Made by a program: the position numbers and the translations under genes. A stretch of 64,000 bases of DNA, from NCBI GenBank assembly GCA_045587265.1, contig JAZNBX010000023.1, forward strand, positions 6,047-70,046, read 5' to 3'. This DNA is from Acutalibacteraceae bacterium. Lineage in GTDB: Bacteria; Bacillota; Clostridia; Oscillospirales; Acutalibacteraceae. Each line of letters opens with the position of its first letter. Positions within the stretch are counted from its first letter, which is position 1. The notes under the pieces were generated by a model that saw only the letters and a list, made by a program, of their open reading frames with translations, was not told the DNA's origin and did not search any database. Of this stretch, positions 47,339-52,855 are shown piece after piece.

Positions 47339-47366
47339 TTGACAAACGGATAAAATATGCTATAAT
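47339..47366 (+). promoter_or_regulatory. SigmaA-type promoter for the tRNA pair
   Basis: TTGACA, a 16-nt spacer, then TGcTATAAT. Lies 17 nt upstream of the tRNA 5' end. Confidence 0.75.
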
Positions 47367-47382: not shown

Positions 47383-47459
47383 GGGCCATTAGCTCAGTTG
47401 GTTAGAGCAACCGGCTCATAACCGGTTGGTCCGGGGTTCGAGTCCCTGATGGCCCACCA
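47383..47459 (+). tRNA. tRNA with CAT anticodon (Met, or lysidine-type Ile2; the CTCATAACC loop resembles Ile2)
   Basis: 77 nt. Acceptor GGGCCAT/ATGGCCC, AGCTCAGTTGGTTAGAGC D-arm, anticodon CAT at 47417-47419, GGTTCGAGTCC T-arm, encoded CCA. Confidence 0.9.
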
Positions 47460-47468
47460 TTTTAATAT

Positions 47469-47542
47469 AGGGGCATGATGTAATGGTAACATTCCGGTCT
47501 CCAAAACCGTCCTTGAGGGTTCGAGTCCTTCTGCCCCTGCCA
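47469..47542 (+). tRNA. tRNA-Trp (CCA)
   Basis: 74 nt. Acceptor AGGGGCA/TGCCCCT, anticodon loop CTCCAAA, T-arm GAGGGTTCGAGTCCTTC, encoded CCA. Confidence 0.92.
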
Positions 47543-47609
47543 AAAAAGAAACCACCCAACAGGGTGGTTTTTTGCATATAATAAAATAAGAAGGACTCGA
47601 ACACCGAGG
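47525..47609. repeat. 85-bp direct repeat, copy 1 (tRNA-Trp 3' 18 nt + terminator + 36 nt)
   Basis: Identical base for base to 47722-47806 (offset 197) on my comparison. Confidence 0.9.
47549..47573 (+). terminator. Intrinsic terminator after tRNA-Trp
   Basis: AAACCACCC/GGGTGGTTT stem followed by TTT. Confidence 0.85.
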
Positions 47610-47721
47610 GGGTCTCACCGTAAAGAAAAATAGTCCGGTGGACTGTTTTTTAGGTGAGAGGTGCGCAGACGGGTACTGCGAACAAGGTGAGCGGTCGTCA
47701 AGCAGGGCAAAAATTTTTTGC

Positions 47722-47806
47722 GTCCTTCTGCCCCTGCCAAAAAAGAAACCACCCAACAGGGTGGTTTTTTGCATATAATAAAATAAGAAGGACTCGAACA
47801 CCGAGG
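47722..47806. repeat. 85-bp direct repeat, copy 2 (orphan tRNA-Trp 3' end + duplicated terminator)
   Basis: Identical to 47525-47609. There is no tRNA body upstream of it. Confidence 0.9.
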
Positions 47807-47826
47807 CAGAAAAGAACTCTTTTTTG

Positions 47827-47855
47827 TTGCACACGAACAAATAGTGTGTTACAAT
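47827..47855 (+). promoter_or_regulatory. SigmaA-type promoter for the surface-protein gene
   Basis: TTGCAC, a 17-nt spacer, then TGtTACAAT. Confidence 0.6.
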
Positions 47856-47929
47856 TAATTTAGCAGGTCAATTTAGTTTGATAGATAGGTAATTGATTTG
47901 TAGTTTTTTTGTTTTAGGAGGAAAATAAA

Positions 47930-49282
47930 TTGAAAAAAATAGCATCTATTTTCTTGGCGTTAGTACTTTTTGTAAGTGCAATACCCTCTATGGCAATTAG
48001 CGCTAATGCTGCGGTCAATGAGATTGCAAACGGTATATCTAAAATCGAAATTGTTCAGTCTCAAAGAATTTTAGGAAATGAAGGCGTGCTTTTGGATGAC
48101 GGCGTATACCTATATTGGAGCAATGTAGAGACTTTTAATTATAAAGTTATGTTCACCAGTGGAGCGTCTACAACCGTTACATATACGCAACTGGAAAATA
48201 TGGGGGTAGAAATACACACTATTAAATTCATTGGTGAATACTACGAGTACGACGATAGGTGTTTCTTTAAAGCGGGCAAACAACCCGTACAAATCAATCT
48301 GATAAATGGAAACGTTTGCACAAGTTATGTAGACATAACCTCATTTTCAAGTTGGCTTTTGTCACTTGGCATAAATGTTTCCAGTGATTTCGATGATATG
48401 ATAATTGAATATGAAGGCTCTGAGGAACAAGCATATTATTGGAGAATTAAGCCAGACCAAACAAACAACTATGATTTGTACTCTGAAAAATGGAATCAAA
48501 TAAATGGAAACATTCTTATATTTGATGCCAATAACAACGTAATTCCCAATAATAGCGGTTGGAATTTAAAAGCGGGTCAAGAGTACGCAATCCGTATAGC
48601 ATACAAATATAATACGGGTTGTTATCAGGATGTACCATTTTGGTTAGAGGCTAACAGAGACCACAGCCACAACTATCTTCCAAAAACGGTGGCAGCAACA
48701 GTAACTAAAAATGGGCGCATAGACTATACTTGTACATCTTGCGGAAACGTAAGCGTAAGCAAGACAATTAACTATCCAAAGACCATTAAGTTATCTGCAA
48801 CAAGCTACACCTACAATGGTAAGGCTAAAAAGCCTGGCGTGGTTGTTAAAGACTCATCAGGTAAATCACTCAAAGAAGGCACAGATTACACTATAACTTA
48901 TCCAAGTGGTAGAAAGAACGTTGGTAGTTATAATGTTGTTGTTAAATTTAAGGGTAATTATAGCGGAACAAAGACTCTTACTTTCAAAATCAACCCTACA
49001 AGCACCAAGATTTCAAAAGTTAGCGGCGGCAAAAAAAGCTTAACCGTAAAATATTCTAAAAAATCTAAGCAGGTTACAGGATATGAGGTTCAATACAGCA
49101 CTTCAAAGAGCTTTAAATCTGCAAAGACCAAGACTGTTAAGAGTTATAAAACAACAACTGCCAAAGTAACAAAGCTAAAGGCAAAGAAAAAGTATTATGT
49201 TCGTGTTCGTACGTATAAAACAGTTGGCAAAACAAAATACTATTCAGCTTGGTCATCAGTAAAATCTGCAAAAACCAAATAA
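47930..49282 (+). CDS. Secreted protein with an MBG/Ig-like module and a C-terminal FN3-like K-rich module
   Basis: TTG start after AGGAGG. Signal peptide ...ISANA. SYTYNGKAKKPGVVVKD...GTDYTITY...GNYSGTKTLTFKI matches an MBG-type pattern. KKYYVRVRTYK...YYSAWS is FN3-like. Confidence 0.6.
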   Translation: MKKIASIFLALVLFVSAIPSMAISANAAVNEIANGISKIEIVQSQRILGNEGVLLDDGVYLYWSNVETFNYKVMFTSGASTTVTYTQLENMGVEIHTIKFIGEYYEYDDRCFFKAGKQPVQINLINGNVCTSYVDITSFSSWLLSLGINVSSDFDDMIIEYEGSEEQAYYWRIKPDQTNNYDLYSEKWNQINGNILIFDANNNVIPNNSGWNLKAGQEYAIRIAYKYNTGCYQDVPFWLEANRDHSHNYLPKTVAATVTKNGRIDYTCTSCGNVSVSKTINYPKTIKLSATSYTYNGKAKKPGVVVKDSSGKSLKEGTDYTITYPSGRKNVGSYNVVVKFKGNYSGTKTLTFKINPTSTKISKVSGGKKSLTVKYSKKSKQVTGYEVQYSTSKSFKSAKTKTVKSYKTTTAKVTKLKAKKKYYVRVRTYKTVGKTKYYSAWSSVKSAKTK

Positions 49283-49285
49283 TTA

Positions 49286-49317
49286 AAAAAGCAGGTGCGA
49301 AAGCATCTGCTTTTTGT
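49286..49317 (+). terminator. Intrinsic terminator
   Basis: GCAGGTGC/GCATCTGC stem followed by TTTTT. Confidence 0.75.
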
Positions 49318-49345
49318 TTACTTGCAAGAAATTTTGTGGTATACT
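49317..49345 (+). promoter_or_regulatory. Probable promoter of the PHP/EutH-like operon
   Basis: TTTACT, a 17-nt spacer, then TGgTATACT. Implies a ~135-nt leader containing the AACAC/box module. Confidence 0.5.
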
Positions 49346-49426
49346 ATTAAAAACAGTGTTAAAATGAGTATTACCTACAACGTAACACGAAATAACACAC
49401 CTTAAAACTATAAAAAAACAAATAAC

Positions 49427-49455
49427 TTTGTGACAAAAATACGTGTAAAGAAAAA
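49427..49455 (+). repeat. Box copy A: TTTGTGAC-N7-CGTGTAAAGAAAAA
   Basis: 26 of 30 positions match copy B (51772-51800). Lies about 32 nt upstream of the TTG start at 49487. Confidence 0.7.
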
Positions 49456-49486
49456 CATAATGTGAAATATAAGGGAGATATAATTT

Positions 49487-50299
49487 TTGAAGCAAAATTT
49501 ACATATTCATACAACTTACGCAGACGGAAAAGATTCACCAGAAGAAATCGTTTTGGCGGCTATTACAAAAGAATTTGACTCTATTGGTTTTTCCGAGCAT
49601 ACTTATATGAAATTTTCCAACTATCCATATCAAATGACAATAGAGAAAATGCAAAAATATAAAGATGAAATACACCGTCTAAAAGAAAAATACAAAAACC
49701 AAATAGAAATTTTTTGCGGTTTAGAATACGAATTGTTTTCAGAAGTTACTGCAAATGATTTTGACTATATAATAGGTTCGGTGCATTACCTTGATTTTGA
49801 CGGAAAAAAGATTGGTTTTGATAAAGGGGTAGACGAAACTCAAGATTTTATCAATGAAAATTTTAATGGAGATGCTTTGAAATTCGCTGAAAAATATTAC
49901 CAAACACTGTTATTGTTACCTCAAAAGCTTAGTGTTGATATAATAGGGCATTTTGACTTGATAACCAAAACAAATGAAATAAGACCTTTTCTTGATGTAC
50001 GCTCAAATGAATATCTAAATCTTGGATACGAGGCGATTCATAATTTAAAAGGTAAAATTCCTTTTTTCGAAGTCAATACAGGTGCTATTGCAAGAGGATA
50101 TAGAACTATACCGTATCCTCAAATAGAATTCTTGAAAGAATTCAAGAAGTGTGGTTTTGGTGCGGTAATAACTTCTGATTGTCATAATAAAGACTTTCTT
50201 GATTGCAATTATTGTGAAGCGAAAGAAGTACTTGAAGAAGCCGGTTTTAACACAAAATGGATTCTTACTGTAGATGGTTTTAAAGAGGTTGAACTATGA
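49487..50299 (+). CDS. PHP-domain phosphatase (HisJ/histidinol-phosphatase family)
   Basis: NLHIHTTYADGKDSPEE, GFSEH, GSVHY, IGHFD metal-ligand pattern. TTG start after AAGGGAG. Confidence 0.8.
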   Translation: MKQNLHIHTTYADGKDSPEEIVLAAITKEFDSIGFSEHTYMKFSNYPYQMTIEKMQKYKDEIHRLKEKYKNQIEIFCGLEYELFSEVTANDFDYIIGSVHYLDFDGKKIGFDKGVDETQDFINENFNGDALKFAEKYYQTLLLLPQKLSVDIIGHFDLITKTNEIRPFLDVRSNEYLNLGYEAIHNLKGKIPFFEVNTGAIARGYRTIPYPQIEFLKEFKKCGFGAVITSDCHNKDFLDCNYCEAKEVLEEAGFNTKWILTVDGFKEVEL

Positions 50300-51363
50300 A
50301 CATACTAACTATAATAGTGGTTTCCTTTTCTGTTTTAGGTGCGGTTGACAAACTGCTTGGAAATAAAATAGGAATTGGAAGCGAGTTTGAAAAAGGCTTT
50401 AAGCTTTTTGTGCCAATGGCTTTTTCAATGCTTGGAATACTTGTAATTGCGCCCGCTGTGGGTGTTTGGCTAACACCTGTTTTTGATTGGTTTTATGCTG
50501 CATTTAAAATAGACCCTTCCATAATACCTGCATCGCTATTTGCAAACGATATGGGAGGCATGACTCTTGCAAATTCAATTTGCAAATCTGAAAACATAGG
50601 AAATTATAATGCTTTTGTTGTATCCTCTATGATGGGTTGCGTAGTTTCATTCACCATACCATTTGCCATTAGTGTAGTCAAAAAGGAACAACATAAAGAA
50701 ATGTTTTTAGGTATTCTTTGCGGCATAGCAACCATTCCCATAGGTTGCTTTGTAGCAGGACTGATTTGCCATATCAATATTTTAGATTTGTTTATGACCC
50801 TGTTGCCATTGATTGTGTTTTCAGTGCTTTTAGTGGTTTTACTTATTACTTTGACAAATTTTTGTATCAAAATATTTGTAGTGCTTGGAAATATTATCAG
50901 ATGGATATCAATGATAGGTCTAGTGTGCGCAATATTCACTTTTTTAACAAAAATTGAAATATGTCAGTATTTTGATAGCCTTGAAAATGCTGCGTTTATT
51001 TGCGTAAATGCTTGTGTAACCCTGTCAGGAATGTTGCCGTTTATGTACGTTGTTTCTAAACTTATTAATAAACCTATGGATAAAATAGGAGCAAAAATCG
51101 GGATTGATTCACTCTCTGCATTTTCCTTCATTTCAACCCTTGTCACAAATGCGACCGCATTAAGTTCTATGGAAAGAATGAATAAAAAAGGGGTTGTTCT
51201 CAATTCGGCATTTGCTGTTTCGGCGGCATTTGTATTTGGTAGCCATTTGGCGCTAACGATGGCATTCAATGCTGATTACATATTACCTATGATTGTCGGT
51301 AAAATTGTTTCGGGTGTATCGGCAGTTATTTTAGCACTATTGATTTATAAGGATAGAGAATAA
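50296..51363 (+). CDS. EutH-like permease (ethanolamine-utilisation protein EutH family)
   Basis: N-terminus ...GAVDKLLGNKIGIGSEFEKGF resembles EutH. About 10 TM segments. Its ATG overlaps the upstream stop (ATGA). Confidence 0.7.
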   Translation: MNILTIIVVSFSVLGAVDKLLGNKIGIGSEFEKGFKLFVPMAFSMLGILVIAPAVGVWLTPVFDWFYAAFKIDPSIIPASLFANDMGGMTLANSICKSENIGNYNAFVVSSMMGCVVSFTIPFAISVVKKEQHKEMFLGILCGIATIPIGCFVAGLICHINILDLFMTLLPLIVFSVLLVVLLITLTNFCIKIFVVLGNIIRWISMIGLVCAIFTFLTKIEICQYFDSLENAAFICVNACVTLSGMLPFMYVVSKLINKPMDKIGAKIGIDSLSAFSFISTLVTNATALSSMERMNKKGVVLNSAFAVSAAFVFGSHLALTMAFNADYILPMIVGKIVSGVSAVILALLIYKDRE

Positions 51364-51404
51364 AACATTGAATTACGAAAAACAACAAAAAAGGAGTGAG
51401 AACG

Positions 51405-51677
51405 ATGGACAAATTTGTTTTACATTCAAAATATAAGCCTACAGGCGACCAACCAGAGGCTATTGAAAAATTGACCGAAGGGCTCAAAAATGGCTTAACA
51501 GAGCAGGTTTTACTTGGTGTTACCGGTTCGGGTAAGACCTTTACAATGGCGAATATTATCGCAAATGCAAACAAACCGACCCTAGTTCTCGCTCACAACA
51601 AAACACTCGCCGCACAACTTTGTAGTGAATTCAGAGAATTCTTCCCCGAAAACGCGGTGGAGTATTTTGTATCCTAA
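51405..51677 (+). pseudogene. Truncated uvrB 5' fragment (RBS + 90 codons including Walker A, then stop)
   Basis: [23 protein letters not shown]...[14 protein letters not shown]...EYFVS* aligns colinearly with residues 3-92 of the intact UvrB at 52856. Confidence 0.9.
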
Positions 51678-51768
51678 TACAAGATTTGCACTAAAAACCG
51701 TCACAAAACACCGTTTTTAGGGGCTTTTTAACACCAAATAACACAGAATAACACTGTATAAACCAAAT

Positions 51769-51793
51769 AAATTTGTGACCTAAATTCGTGTAA
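51769..51793. repeat. 25-bp perfect direct repeat, copy B (AAATTTGTGACCTAAATTCGTGTAA)
   Basis: Identical to 52741-52765. Lies upstream of the LRR gene. Confidence 0.9.
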
Positions 51794-51828
51794 AGAAAAA
51801 ATAATTACTTTTCAGGAGTGAAACTATT

Positions 51829-52698
51829 TTGAATTTTTCTTTTAAATCTTTTGCTGATGGCAGTTTTGACTACGACAAGAAAACGGAAACACATACAGGT
51901 TTGTATCTTCGTGAAGAAAAAGCCGACATTAGCGGCGGTAAAATTAAGTTTTCAGATATAGATGTACTTAAAAATTATCCTAATGTTGACACTGTTACCG
52001 TTTCGGGGCTTAATCAAGAAACCTTTGAATATTTTATACTTAACTATGGTAAACAATTAAAAGCAATTCGATTTTTCAAGAATAAGCAAATTGAGGATTT
52101 GTCTCTTTTAGGCACACTTCCACAATTAGAATATCTTTATTTTTTCGCAAATCAAAAAGTAACACAGCTTTGGGATATGTCGAATAATACTTCTTTAACA
52201 GGAGTTTGCATTGAGGATTTTTCAAAGCTCAAATCCATAGTTGGCATTGAAACTGCACCCAACCTAAAATATTTTACAATCGGCAACGCAATTTGGGATA
52301 CTGCAGAAATTGAAAGTTTTATGCCTCTTGCGAACACTAAAATTGAATATTTGTCCTTTACGGGCAAAAAGATTACAGACAATGATTTTTCGTTTTTGTC
52401 TGATATGTTGCAATTAAAAGAGTTTGATTTTTCATTACACTTTTTGACAACCGAACAGGTTGCTTGGATTGTTGCTAATTTCCCACACTTGAAAGGTTTT
52501 GCTTTAAAAGCAAAACACGATTGTGAACTGTTTAAAAGCAATGAAGATTTGACAAAAGTTCCTGCAACAATTATTGTTGGTAAAAGAAAGCCGTCACTCA
52601 AAATTGAGGGGAATGAACAACGAATTAAAAATTACGAGTTAAAATTTGAGGCGTTAGTAGAGAAATATAAGGGCAAAAAATATTGTGAGATTTTTTGA
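51829..52698 (+). CDS. Cytoplasmic leucine-rich-repeat (LRR) protein
   Basis: TTG start after CAGGAG. No signal peptide. Repeated LxxLxxLxL-type units (LSLLGTLPQLEYLYF, LTGVCIEDFSKLKSIVGIE, NLKYFTIGN, IEYLSFTG, LKEFDFS). Confidence 0.65.
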   Translation: MNFSFKSFADGSFDYDKKTETHTGLYLREEKADISGGKIKFSDIDVLKNYPNVDTVTVSGLNQETFEYFILNYGKQLKAIRFFKNKQIEDLSLLGTLPQLEYLYFFANQKVTQLWDMSNNTSLTGVCIEDFSKLKSIVGIETAPNLKYFTIGNAIWDTAEIESFMPLANTKIEYLSFTGKKITDNDFSFLSDMLQLKEFDFSLHFLTTEQVAWIVANFPHLKGFALKAKHDCELFKSNEDLTKVPATIIVGKRKPSLKIEGNEQRIKNYELKFEALVEKYKGKKYCEIF

Positions 52699-52740
52699 TG
52701 TTGAATACTCGGCTGAATATTTTGTACTGAATACGACTAC

Positions 52741-52765
52741 AAATTTGTGACCTAAATTCGTGTAA
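52741..52765. repeat. 25-bp perfect direct repeat, copy C
   Basis: Identical to 51769-51793. Lies 91 nt upstream of the uvrB start. Confidence 0.9.
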
Positions 52766-52855
52766 TTTACTATTCGCCAACTTTTTGAGTAAAATTTTAG
52801 AGAATTTAAGACAAGAAAATGGCAGAAAATAATCAAAAAAGAGAGGAGTGAGAAC

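Follow-up and report, generated by a model that had tools for sequence, protein, structure and literature searches.

A family of structured, tRNA-matched cassettes behind tRNA and tmRNA genes of gut and rumen Oscillospirales

The sequence behind the tRNA-Trp gene of the window, by which we mean the whole 64-kb stretch of DNA analysed, belongs to a large undescribed family of cassettes that follow tRNA or tmRNA genes in Oscillospirales of gut and rumen, and no described mobile element or RNA family matches it. Mobile DNA classically lands at tRNA genes, yet the short non-coding stretches that follow these genes are seldom looked at. On balance, we lean towards the explanation that the locus holds 1.43 (about 1.4) head-to-tail units of a structured family cassette of ~197 bp, the read-through RNA of which would refold and which would be gained and lost by recombination. 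The family is of interest as about one in four genera of a major family of gut and rumen bacteria carry it, with no known enzyme or RNA family to account for it.

Exact repeat behind tRNA-Trp

Positions 47525-47609 recur at 47722-47806 with 85 of 85 nucleotides identical and a start-to-start spacing of 197 bp according to both sequence inspection and a repeat finder, which extends the match to 47520-47609 vs. 47717-47806 (98% over 90 nt). An exact repeat of 85 nt cannot be chance. It starts at tRNA-Trp position 59, the G that follows A58 in the T-loop, and spans the CCA end and the terminator hairpin. Positions 59-76 are thereby duplicated and tRNA-Trp remains intact, as is characteristic of integrative elements of the T-loop class. 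The parts of the locus are compiled in Table 1.

Table 1. Parts of the tRNA-Trp locus in the window.
Feature	Position	Strand	Details
Consensus promoter of the tRNA-Met/tRNA-Trp operon	47339-47366		promoter scan, 12/12 match
tRNA-Met(CAT)	47383..47459	+	first gene of the two-tRNA operon; ARAGORN; Rfam tRNA 72.2 bits
tRNA-Trp(CCA)	47469..47542	+	intact, CCA-encoded; cassette directly behind; ARAGORN; Rfam 54.8 bits
Tail copy 1	47525..47542	+	tRNA-Trp positions 59-76 (GTCCTTCTGCCCCTGCCA), within the functional tRNA; opens the first 85-bp repeat
Trailer	47543..47588	+	intrinsic bidirectional terminator hairpin (47549-47570), T-run and AT-rich linker; terminator scan
Antisense T-arm copy 1	47589..47602	+	AGAAGGACTCGAAC, exact reverse complement of tRNA-Trp positions 53-66 (47519-47532); repeat finder
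Conserved type-A core	47603..47721	+	covariance model R1 match 47601-47704, 90.7 bits, E = 3e-21
Core: long hairpin (preceded by a small 5' helix)	47613-47659		stem TCTCACC/GGTGAGA around A-run, AGTCC-GGT-GGACT (47632-47644) and T-run
Core: long bulged helix	47662-47704		G[GACG]GGT[ACT]...[GGT][CGTC]
Core: variable hairpin	47707-47721
Tail copy 2	47722..47739	+	orphan copy of tRNA-Trp 59-76; opens the second 85-bp repeat
Second trailer and terminator	47740..47785	+	identical to 47543-47588 (T1/T2 40/40 identical)
Antisense T-arm copy 2 and 7 nt	47786..47806	+	AGAAGGACTCGAAC again (47786-47799), then ACCGAGG; second unit ends here

A sequence-only reading of this DNA had described the 85-bp repeat, its start in the T-loop and inclusion of the terminator, an inverted T-arm copy of 14 nt in each unit and a nested hairpin in the spacer, and had seen no integrase; our analysis bears out each of these points, and the 64-kb window holds no integrase. 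The three GGTGAG motifs that it counted in the spacer are two on the + strand (47653 and 47686), the third being the complement CTCACC at 47614.

Elsewhere in the 64-kb window, neither the tRNA-Trp tail nor the core occurs again. No ORF lies within the cassette unit. A TATAAT box at 47577-47582 was considered as an own promoter before the antisense piece and set aside on inspection since other units show no conserved counterpart. A decayed second core after the second 85-bp copy was likewise rejected: the alignment of the core to 47807-47930 scores 19 and is no better than shuffles (mean 20.4 +/- 3.3). The downstream sequence (47807-52843) looks accessory and differs from that of the relatives G004 and G012, both of which have a GH130-like gene after tRNA-Trp.

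Architecture, distribution and fold of the cassette family

Each unit of the family is composed of a copy of the tRNA tail (through CCA), a terminator/linker, an antisense T-arm (~positions 51-66) and a helical core of ~110-120 nt. Family-wide, the direct tail copy begins between positions 55 and 59 and invariably extends to A76; usually it comprises exactly 18 nt (59-76), sometimes 22 nt. The antisense piece covers about the reverse complement of 51-66 and starts 37-60 nt after the tRNA (33 units). In G000, the 56-contig draft genome from which the window derives, the same architecture is found at three other tRNAs, namely Gln(CTG), Leu(CAA, two units) and Arg(ACG), and the conserved hairpin has no occurrence in this genome outside cassette-bearing tRNA loci.

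The conserved hairpin is present in 42 of 201 genomes, with a reversed-pattern control near 0, and the type-A model alone matches 36 of the 151 sampled genomes (35/150 genera). Among the new type-A matches, 23 of 28 immediately follow a tRNA on the same strand and have ends that match it, and the remaining five are located at contig edges. Cores of types A-E are distinguished, and the central hairpin has a GUWAAK/UAG internal loop. Cassettes are found behind about 25 tRNA species and tmRNA, and the named carriers are Acutalibacteraceae, Ruminococcus, Oscillospiraceae and similar MAGs from gut and rumen. The terminators before and after the cassette are identical in 10 of 47 units, a minority class that includes the Trp locus of the window. 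Ends and local tRNA do not always correspond: G101 carries a Ser-GCT-type antisense piece behind tRNA-Ser-GGA, some outer units also mismatch the local tRNA, and the tail of the tmRNA-linked unit does not match. In Rfam release 15, only tRNA and tmRNA reach the threshold and the cassette stays uncovered even at E <= 10; a literature search found no description of such an element.

The aligned sequences show that the core helices are maintained by compensatory changes. Paired cells amount to 91.7% in the core helices, compared to 68.7% after shuffling and 40-47% in slid controls. Compensatory changes occur in 29 of 37 core pairs and none of 500 shuffles reached the observed values, the counts being taken from an alignment fitted to the model. 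Moreover, G.U cells outnumber A.C cells 53 to 16 (51 to 7 without the weak first helix), and this bias shows that the tRNA-sense strand is the strand that folds. Compensated helices and strand-specific G.U pairs are the marks of a structured RNA; single-stranded DNA would give the same signal, and the helices together with G.T tolerance would also fit a folded top-strand single-stranded DNA.

Empty and occupied sites in relatives

Related species, congeners among them, present empty, stump-only, occupied and differently occupied sites; at the Trp locus, the Arg locus and a Trp-Asp operon, empty sites contrast with occupied ones at a precise boundary. A comparison of tRNA-Trp loci for an empty site, as the sequence-only reading had proposed, finds one in G004. 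There, tRNA-Trp is followed by a terminator homologous to the first trailer of the window (alignment 45 vs. a control mean of 15.1). G012 has the stump only and G000 1.4 units. The stump boundary (..AAGGACTCGAACACCGA, then unique sequence) is common to the window and G012; the contig of the latter breaks inside the Trp module, and a Trp-type core is not in its assembly. At the Arg locus, the terminator of G004 matches the one after the orphan tail of G000 (26/33 identical; 0/37 controls as good). Insertion at this locus was precise and displaced the native terminator. Units at the Gln locus are layered. The Trp-Asp operon is empty in G015 and G019 and occupied in G072, which carries a cassette without terminator between tRNA-Trp and tRNA-Asp; the sole full copy of tRNA-Thr(GGT) in G072 lies downstream of this operon-internal cassette.

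In G009, a Leu-type cassette is found behind tRNA-Pro. Both of its ends are Leu-type, the tRNA-Leu site of the same genome is empty, and the cassette tail matches the genome's own tRNA-Leu in 18/18 positions including a derived, compensated C-to-T change. This locus shows that a cassette can relocate as a single piece with both tRNA-matched ends and that the tail copy tracks a lineage-specific change in the cognate tRNA. We also considered that the ends are copied from the local tRNA at insertion, which is contradicted by the Leu ends behind tRNA-Pro in G009 and by the Ser-GCT antisense piece behind tRNA-Ser-GGA in G101.

Predicted read-through RNA and alternative explanations

In the explanation that we favour, RNA polymerase would start at the strong tRNA promoter and read through into the cassette. 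The antisense piece of the read-through RNA would then capture the tRNA's own T-arm, its only full-length partner, and the distal tail would pair with the 5' acceptor strand of the tRNA. The product would resemble a tRNA in which both ends (5' and 3' NCCA) are normal and would carry a structured expansion of ~190 nt. Minimum-energy folds have this form at 11 of 11 loci, with every antisense nucleotide paired to the T-arm and the distal tail paired to the 5' acceptor strand. The predicted gain on refolding amounts to 8-21 kcal/mol (-14.3 for the window vs. -0.9 +/- 1.1 with scrambled ends), an outcome that is partly a consequence of the complementarity itself. The operon-internal cassette of G072 provides indirect support for the predicted transcript. 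In most units, the sense strand bears two or three hairpins that resemble terminators, namely those of the proximal and distal trailers and the central hairpin together with its T-run, and these should limit full-length transcripts. The refold model leaves unaccounted for the stump without core or distal tail in G012 and at the distal end of the Trp locus in the window.

Gain, loss and tandem copies would proceed via recombination through the tail or tail-plus-terminator repeats, carried out either by general recombination on incoming DNA or by a recombinase acting in trans. In the window, a full unit would have been placed proximal to a resident partial module consisting of tail, terminator, antisense T-arm and 7 nt.

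A more specific proposal on the function of such RNAs is tentative. The cassettes might be genes for a new class of tRNA-embedded RNAs that are made only on terminator read-through. According to the folding model, the antisense piece would strip the T-arm and the distal tail would re-form the acceptor stem, so that a 'T-loop-expanded' tRNA-like product would keep the D-arm, anticodon arm and NCCA and add the conserved ~190-nt domain. The two ends would program each cassette for one tRNA, and a cassette might also work in trans; the Leu-matched cassette of G009, which is located behind tRNA-Pro and follows the tRNA-Leu of its own species, suggests as much. If the read-through RNA is real, there would be two products per tRNA gene and a new route to large RNAs on a tRNA scaffold. 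As in tmRNA and split or permuted tRNAs, a large structured insert of the predicted read-through RNA is enclosed by an acceptor stem that has an NCCA overhang. In contrast to these, the predicted insert replaces the T-loop and not the anticodon region, the cassette has no tag reading frame or known partner protein, and the same gene also yields a normal tRNA.

A selfish miniature integrative DNA element is an alternative that we rate as possible but rather improbable. Here, a tyrosine integrase of a phage or ICE would act in trans and move the ~200-bp unit via a crossover in the tRNA tail, similar to a minimal attP or a CIME, and the helices and antisense T-arm would represent recombination-site architecture, possibly as folded single-stranded DNA and not as RNA. 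CIMEs (cis-mobilizable elements) keep attL and attR and have lost the genes for integration and transfer, and accretion is defined in the same work (PMC5704250). The cassette resembles T-loop-class tyrosine-integrase elements and CIMEs in several respects. It occupies the stretch from T-loop to 3' end of a tRNA or tmRNA and leaves the gene intact; its tail duplication covers this same stretch, as with classical tRNA-targeting integrases; a displaced or duplicated tail of 18-22 nt marks its distal end; and the tandem arrays and layers resemble accretion. The precise insertion at the Arg locus with its displaced terminator also fits, as do real integrase-bearing prophages that use the same tRNAs as the cassettes. 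Like a CIME, the cassette has two tail copies and no recombination genes. Furthermore, three terminator-like hairpins on the sense strand disfavour a long RNA, and the folding strand would be the lagging-strand template for co-oriented genes. If the cassette is a selfish element, it would be the smallest known kind of tRNA-targeted insertion unit, spreading without a recombinase of its own, and would bear on tRNA loci as hot spots and on breaks of metagenome assemblies at tRNAs.

Against this stands the search for an enzyme, a cargo or a carrier. Neither an integrase nor any cargo is present inside the unit among more than 100 units, and no parent element (ICE, IME or phage) was found for the cassette. 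The recombinases of G000 are two Xer-like proteins and one phage integrase, all of them encoded away from the Trp cassette; about 25 tRNA species would require many integrase specificities, more than this small set of enzymes in a small genome such as G000 suggests. Unlike a CIME, the cassette shows no signs of decay from an ICE or IME: it holds no gene remnants and its interior is the conserved covarying structure. Unlike T-loop-class elements, it has no tyrosine integrase of its own beside the att site, measures only ~200 bp, and has a core of compensated helices with strand-specific G.U pairs. The inverted core-type arms that flank both junctions of such elements do not occur in the cassette; the symmetric T-stem arm expected at attR is missing left of the orphan tail, where the sequence reads AAATTTTTTGC. 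The Leu-type ends behind tRNA-Pro in G009 are not expected from a tail-specific integrase. The antisense T-arm copy is a further difference, and no att site is known to need one. Finally, deposited phage and plasmid records gave no blastn match to the cassette, and in viral contigs it lies on the host side of attR. The miniature non-autonomous element offered by the sequence-only reading was the closest of its options, yet it is incomplete, as it lacks the structured nature of the cassette and the antisense T-arm, and no enzyme can be tied to the unit.

Integron attC sites and the attP of the CTX phage are folded single-stranded recombination sites. They resemble the cassette in that structure is kept more than sequence, one strand folds, small units form arrays and an inverted repeat rebuilds a duplex copy of the target site, strand bias being the one property compared here. 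They differ in that no integron integrase, dif-like site or cassette ORFs accompany the cassette, and in that its target is a tRNA gene.

Several candidates for a carrier or partner were examined and rejected. On contigs from IMG/VR, the cassettes are situated past the integrase and a displaced tRNA fragment; all tails are clustered, no intact tRNA is present, and one record is classed as a provirus. We read these contigs as a prophage integrated into a cassette-bearing tRNA and not as a phage-borne cassette. A C31 integrase near tRNA-Gln is part of a prophage-like block, with another gene between integrase and tRNA. Reverse transcriptase, IS200/IS605 Y1 and IS110 are all absent from G000, and none is consistent across the five multi-copy genomes tested. 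Units without a nearby tail, considered as an autonomous version with cargo between the core halves, proved truncated or decayed.

A plain local tandem duplication of 197 bp of ordinary intergenic sequence, by slippage or unequal crossing over, is very unlikely. The sequence-only reading had listed such a duplication, and it is right for this locus as to the 1.43 head-to-tail units with 85/85 identity; moreover, the tail repeats are substrates for unequal crossing over, and the 10 of 47 family units with the same terminator on both sides agree with it. However, the unit is a family member and not unique sequence, and duplication accounts for the copy number here but not for the antisense T-arm and covarying core that are found across tRNAs and genera. 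A single unequal crossover would yield two full units, not 1.43, and the stump boundary is common to G012. The same reading had linked plain slippage to relatives that differ in unit number and never carry an island. This is essentially what the Trp locus presents; slippage is not the conclusion to draw, given that the element is widespread.

Even less likely is that an excised or internally deleted island left the repeat as a scar, in which the tails would be attL and attR and the island would survive only in the 112 bp that separate the repeats. The duplicated tRNA 3' end that begins in the T-loop speaks for such a scar, as does the accessory appearance of 47807-52843 in comparison to G004 and G012. 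Nevertheless, the 112 bp, for which the sequence-only reading had listed such an event among the possible explanations, are no random residue but the conserved, covarying and structured core that occurs behind many tRNAs in at least 35 genera, and identical deletion end-points would be needed at dozens of tRNAs in 35 genera. The family census already contradicts the scar; in addition, the window lacks an integrase, and a search for a third copy of tail or core at the border of the accessory block found none.

The lengths of 18 and 22 nt are those of retroviral primer-binding sites and of tRF-3a/b fragments. A retro-element or a product of tRNA-primed reverse transcription, in which the 18-nt tail would be a copy resembling a primer-binding site that stops after A58 like retroviral plus-strand strong-stop DNA, would fit tail copies of mostly 18 and sometimes 22 nt and a cassette that folds on the tRNA-sense strand. 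Yet reverse transcriptase (RVT_1) above the cut-off is absent from G000 and from four of the five multi-copy genomes tested (G087, G127, G120 and G101), tail and core are not oriented as in tRNA-primed cDNA, and, unlike retrons and other RT-associated ncRNAs, the cassette has no adjacent or consistently co-occurring RT. We therefore regard this origin as highly improbable.

The least probable account is an assembly artefact, a mis-join in a metagenome-assembled genome that would fit a 56-contig draft and the G012 contig break inside the same module, since ordinary reads span an 85-bp repeat whose copies are separated by 112 bp of unique sequence, and units in this tandem arrangement are also seen behind other tRNAs and in many independent assemblies.

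The cassettes are similar to MITE and REP repeats in being small, non-coding, multi-copy and rich in hairpins. Unlike in MITEs, the ends of the cassette vary with the matched tRNA and there are no fixed terminal inverted repeats; a short fixed target-site duplication is lacking, the duplicated piece being the tRNA tail with or without the terminator; and the cassette is strictly tied to tRNA 3' ends, with no transposase tracking it (Y1 and IS110 are absent from several carriers). Hairpin copies away from tRNAs were examined as a possible parent and belong to a distinct, MITE-like intergenic repeat among housekeeping genes. The central hairpin of the cassette is also found in a true MITE-like repeat of ~230 bp with terminal inverted repeats (G084 and G210).

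The repeat behind tRNA-Trp and its counterparts

The sequence-only reading described an 85-nt perfect direct repeat at the tRNA-Trp gene, and both the sequence and a repeat finder confirm it with a spacing of 197 bp. As proposed, the repeat starts in the T-loop, at tRNA position 59, which is the next base after A58, and includes the CCA end and the terminator hairpin. Its 3' end consists of AGAAGGACTCGAAC followed by 7 nt, and AGAAGGACTCGAAC is the exact reverse complement of tRNA-Trp positions 53-66, so that the 14-nt inverted repeat is recovered as well (two inverted pairs in the repeat finder). The nested hairpin and the absence of an integrase among the genes of the window also held up.

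Features of the tRNA-Trp locus in the window
Feature	Position	Basis or remark
tRNA-Met	47383-47459	ARAGORN and Rfam
tRNA-Trp	47469-47542	ARAGORN and Rfam
85-nt direct repeat, first copy	47525-47609	sequence and repeat finder
Terminator hairpin inside the repeat	47549-47570	
TATAAT, first copy	47577-47582	perfect
Nested hairpin	47613-47659	
85-nt direct repeat, second copy	47722-47806	sequence and repeat finder
TATAAT, second copy	47774-47779	perfect; oriented toward the downstream FN3 gene
Region after the distal module	47807-52843	compared with L007 of G004 and L301 of G012
Upstream neighbour		RNA methyltransferase
Downstream neighbours		secreted FN3 protein, PHP, EutH, LRR protein, UvrB

Each TATAAT lies 7 nt upstream of an antisense T-arm copy. 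No -35 element was found for either box outside the terminator hairpin, and other units show no conservation of a TATAAT before the antisense piece. Synteny with the related genomes G004 and G012 is lost exactly where the distal module (second tail, terminator, antisense T-arm and 7 nt) ends. Between tRNA-Trp and uvrB the window carries the genes for the secreted FN3 protein, PHP-EutH and the LRR protein; in G004 and G012, the gene next to tRNA-Trp on this side is GH130-like.

A window-wide search yielded no further copy of the tRNA-Trp tail or of the core. The 112-bp spacer between the repeats did not prove to be unique sequence, however, as parts of it match other contigs of the same genome (G000) and same-genus genomes. 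The matching loci repeat one order: tRNA, terminator, an antisense copy of the T-arm of the same tRNA, core, and a direct copy of the tRNA tail, which comprises the last 18-19 nt of that tRNA in G000 and its congeners. The core hairpin is A(C/T)AGTCCGGTGGACTGT, with an A-run on one side and a T-run on the other. Among the 40 tRNA genes of G000, such cassettes follow Trp, Gln(CTG), Leu(CAA; two tandem units) and Arg(ACG), while Pro(GGG) carries a variant unit with another core; a genome-wide search found the core hairpin nowhere beyond these tRNA loci. At tRNA-Pro(GGG) (contig C7:4206-4500), a 30-nt copy of the gene's own 3' end, covering the whole T-arm and acceptor strand, lies at +203, and the intervening core is unrelated to type A, the core type of the window, and resembles type E (GGTCGAAAAA, TTTTTTCGGGCACCGC).

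Geometry, conserved fold and a possible read-through RNA

Over 33 units, the distance from the tRNA to the start of the antisense piece is 37-60 nt, and this piece spans roughly positions 51-66. The direct piece has a constant end, at A76, and a start that varies over positions 55-59 and is usually 59. Thus, positions 51-58 are covered by the antisense piece and missing from the direct copy, and the only full-length partner of the antisense piece is the T-arm of the upstream tRNA itself.

In the RNAalifold prediction for nine type-A units from seven tRNAs, a stem encloses the central hairpin, a long bulged helix is also present, and many pairs are compensatory. Covariation was tested on 37 copies (34 distinct) realigned to the model. 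In this alignment, which is fitted to the model, standard pairs occupy 91.7% of cells as compared to 68.7% in column shuffles and 40-47% with partners slid; 29 of 37 pairs changed on both sides, and none of 500 shuffles reached the observed values. G.U cells outnumber A.C cells (53 vs 16, or 51 vs 7 leaving out the weak first helix), indicating that the folding strand is the tRNA-sense strand. These data show a constrained fold on the tRNA-sense strand, a signal that single-stranded top-strand DNA would give equally. Five congeners were compared at the Arg locus. There, changes saturate the linker from terminator to antisense piece; conservation is seen in the antisense piece and in several single-stranded motifs, and the stems vary compensatorily.

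The genome G072 (99% complete) harbors a terminator-less cassette between tRNA-Trp and tRNA-Asp inside a tight operon, for which G015 and G019 have the empty arrangement. Since its sole full tRNA-Thr(GGT) copy lies downstream, this cassette is probably traversed by transcription, which is suggestive of read-through. Such transcripts might refold. In minimum-energy folds from tRNA start to distal tail, every antisense nucleotide pairs with the tRNA T-arm at 11 of 11 loci (core types A, B and D), and the distal tail pairs with the 5' acceptor strand of the tRNA, leaving an NCCA overhang. The predicted gain over separate folding is 8-21 kcal/mol (-14.3 for the window vs -0.9 +/- 1.1 with scrambled ends), which speaks to thermodynamic plausibility only, and the formation of such RNAs would be restricted by the terminator-like hairpins. 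After capture of the T-arm, the loop of the resulting helix would enclose the native acceptor 3' strand, and this would explain the need for a second tail as well as the match of both pieces to one tRNA.

Site states, relocation and routes of spread

Comparison of the tRNA-Trp locus in relatives, suggested from the sequence alone, revealed a single-copy empty site in G004, where tRNA-Trp is followed by a homologous terminator and no cassette; G004 and the window are 98% identical through the tRNAs. In G012, the tail, the terminator and AAGGACTCGAACACCGA precede unique DNA and the same GH130-like gene as in G004. This stump equals the distal module of the window, and the Trp-type core is absent from the G012 assembly. 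At the Arg locus, the terminator after the tRNA in G004 resembles that after the orphan tail (the distal copy outside the tRNA) in G000 (26/33 identical, better than all 37 control trailers); hence, a block of new tail, another terminator, antisense piece and core has been inserted precisely at the tRNA 3' part. At the Gln locus, two unit types are layered in an order that differs between species. Of 47 units, 31 have different terminators on the two sides of the cassette, 6 are intermediate and 10, the unit of the window among them, have nearly identical ones; near identity is the mark of tandem or recently duplicated units.

In G101, the stretch of terminator, antisense piece and core behind Ser(GCT) recurs behind Ser(GGA) at ~99% identity, with a GCT-type antisense piece at both loci and each tail fitting its own tRNA. 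In G009, the Leu(CAA)-type cassette of the genus, Leu-type at both ends, sits behind tRNA-Pro between two Pro-terminator copies, and the tRNA-Leu site is empty. Hence, antisense piece, core and tail can relocate as one piece. The relocated tail matches G009's own tRNA-Leu at 18/18 positions, one of which has a derived C-to-T change with compensation in the tRNA 5' strand (G000, G004 and G010 have C); the tail has thus kept in step with its cognate tRNA. Polymorphism, arrays, relocation and placement at the T-loop-to-3'-end boundary are shown.

With the whole tRNA on one flank and 18-22 nt of it on the other, the cassette may be a substrate for general recombination. Tail-to-tail exchange could delete it, unequal exchange could duplicate it, and incoming DNA could install it into an empty site. 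Spread by a recombinase acting in trans is possible. The cassette has no coding content, and no cargo-bearing unit was found among those examined. In G000 (90% complete), no reverse transcriptase (RT) above cut-off, Y1 transposase or IS110 was detected, and the only recombinases are two Xer-like proteins and one phage integrase; among five multi-copy genomes, G127 (100% complete) and G101 are without any RT, Y1 or IS110. In the window, a complete unit probably sits proximal to a partial module already resident there, and recombination between the two 85-bp copies would yield exactly the stump-only state of G012.

The G000 phage integrase is a tyrosine integrase of 372 aa. It lies upstream of tRNA-Gln(CTG), a cassette carrier, at a distance of 1.6 kb that includes one unrelated gene, and ends a prophage-like block of small same-strand ORFs (contig C31:28000-38800). 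Deposited phage and plasmid records gave no cassette match. On IMG/VR contigs, ~25 nt separate the end of an integrase from a 26-nt tRNA 3' fragment, and cassette arrays come next, with all tails clustered there, no intact tRNA in the record and one record classed as provirus. The straightforward interpretation is integration of a prophage into a tRNA already bearing cassettes. Sample 3300045988 (L308, L310, L312, L317, L320) contains a ~33-kb temperate phage group in a tRNA, whose displaced 26-nt tail GGGTTCAAATCCCGTTATCAGCTCCA precedes 2-3 cassette units; at this integrase-made junction, the fragment starts at ~position 51, not 59.

Distribution and relation to known elements

Of 201 genomes sampled from the family, 42 have the hairpin pattern, as compared to about zero for the reversed-pattern control. 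About half of the sampled matches are tRNA-linked units. The remainder, among them almost all of the 28 copies that G084 and G210 each have, belong to a different ~230-bp MITE-like repeat with terminal inverted repeats and the hairpin in common with the cassette. With the covariance model of type A (R1), full-length copies were detected in 36 of 151 genomes, which carry up to 19 each, and in 35 of 150 genera; since relatives are not independent, these counts are descriptive. Of the new matches, 23 of 28 lie directly behind a same-strand tRNA with matching ends and the other five at contig edges. The tRNAs served include Leu (four anticodons), Arg and Ser (three each), Val, Gln, Ala and Thr (two each), Trp, Gly, Lys, Met, Tyr and Pro, plus tmRNA. 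Carriers are mostly draft MAGs; those named are gut and rumen MAGs of Acutalibacteraceae, Ruminococcus, Oscillospiraceae, Anaerotruncus, Ca. Fimenecus, Congzhengia and Eubacterium. Several core types (A-E) exist, type E lacking the standard hairpin with unchanged ends, and orthologous units may differ in the central hairpin. The family is defined by its ends and fold, not by one sequence.

In its working, the cassette is closest to a tRNA-targeted integrative element stripped to nothing, like a CIME, which is a stripped element of this kind (PMC5704250). Unlike such elements, it has no integrase, parent element or symmetric att arm, the features by which they are defined. By their membership tests, it is neither a MITE nor a retron. 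Rfam holds no family for it, and a literature search found no description. New features are the antisense T-arm and the covarying fold, as well as the breadth of about 25 tRNA species and the way in which the tail follows its cognate tRNA even where the two occupy different loci.

Further repeats were observed. The ~230-bp MITE-like intergenic repeat (L056-L091 in G210 and G084; also L026, L040, L041, L051), found about 28 times per genome, is a chain of hairpins between housekeeping genes, with the terminal inverted repeats GGTTGTATGGCAAATGTTGGGG / CCCCAACTATTGACAAAGAGCC in G084 and the same central hairpin as the cassette, ACAGTCCGGTG(G/A)ACTGTTTT. Same-genus tRNA-Trp, Arg and Gln loci (L010, L011, L012, L142, L145, L146, L152, L154) carry additional small repeat families, one starting AAAATCGACAAG..CTTGTCGATTTTAC followed by CTTTTCACTATTAAC-type words, another forming short-hairpin arrays with iterated words between (ATGAAATA, ATATCAC, CTTCATTA); several element types are layered in the tRNA 3' flanks of this genus. 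At G101:C8:74426-77445 (L047), two tandem pseudo-tRNA-Gly copies lie upstream of an intact tRNA-Gly(CCC), each with positions 1-55, a cassette-like core and then positions 56-68, an order that places the core inside the T-loop without tail duplication.
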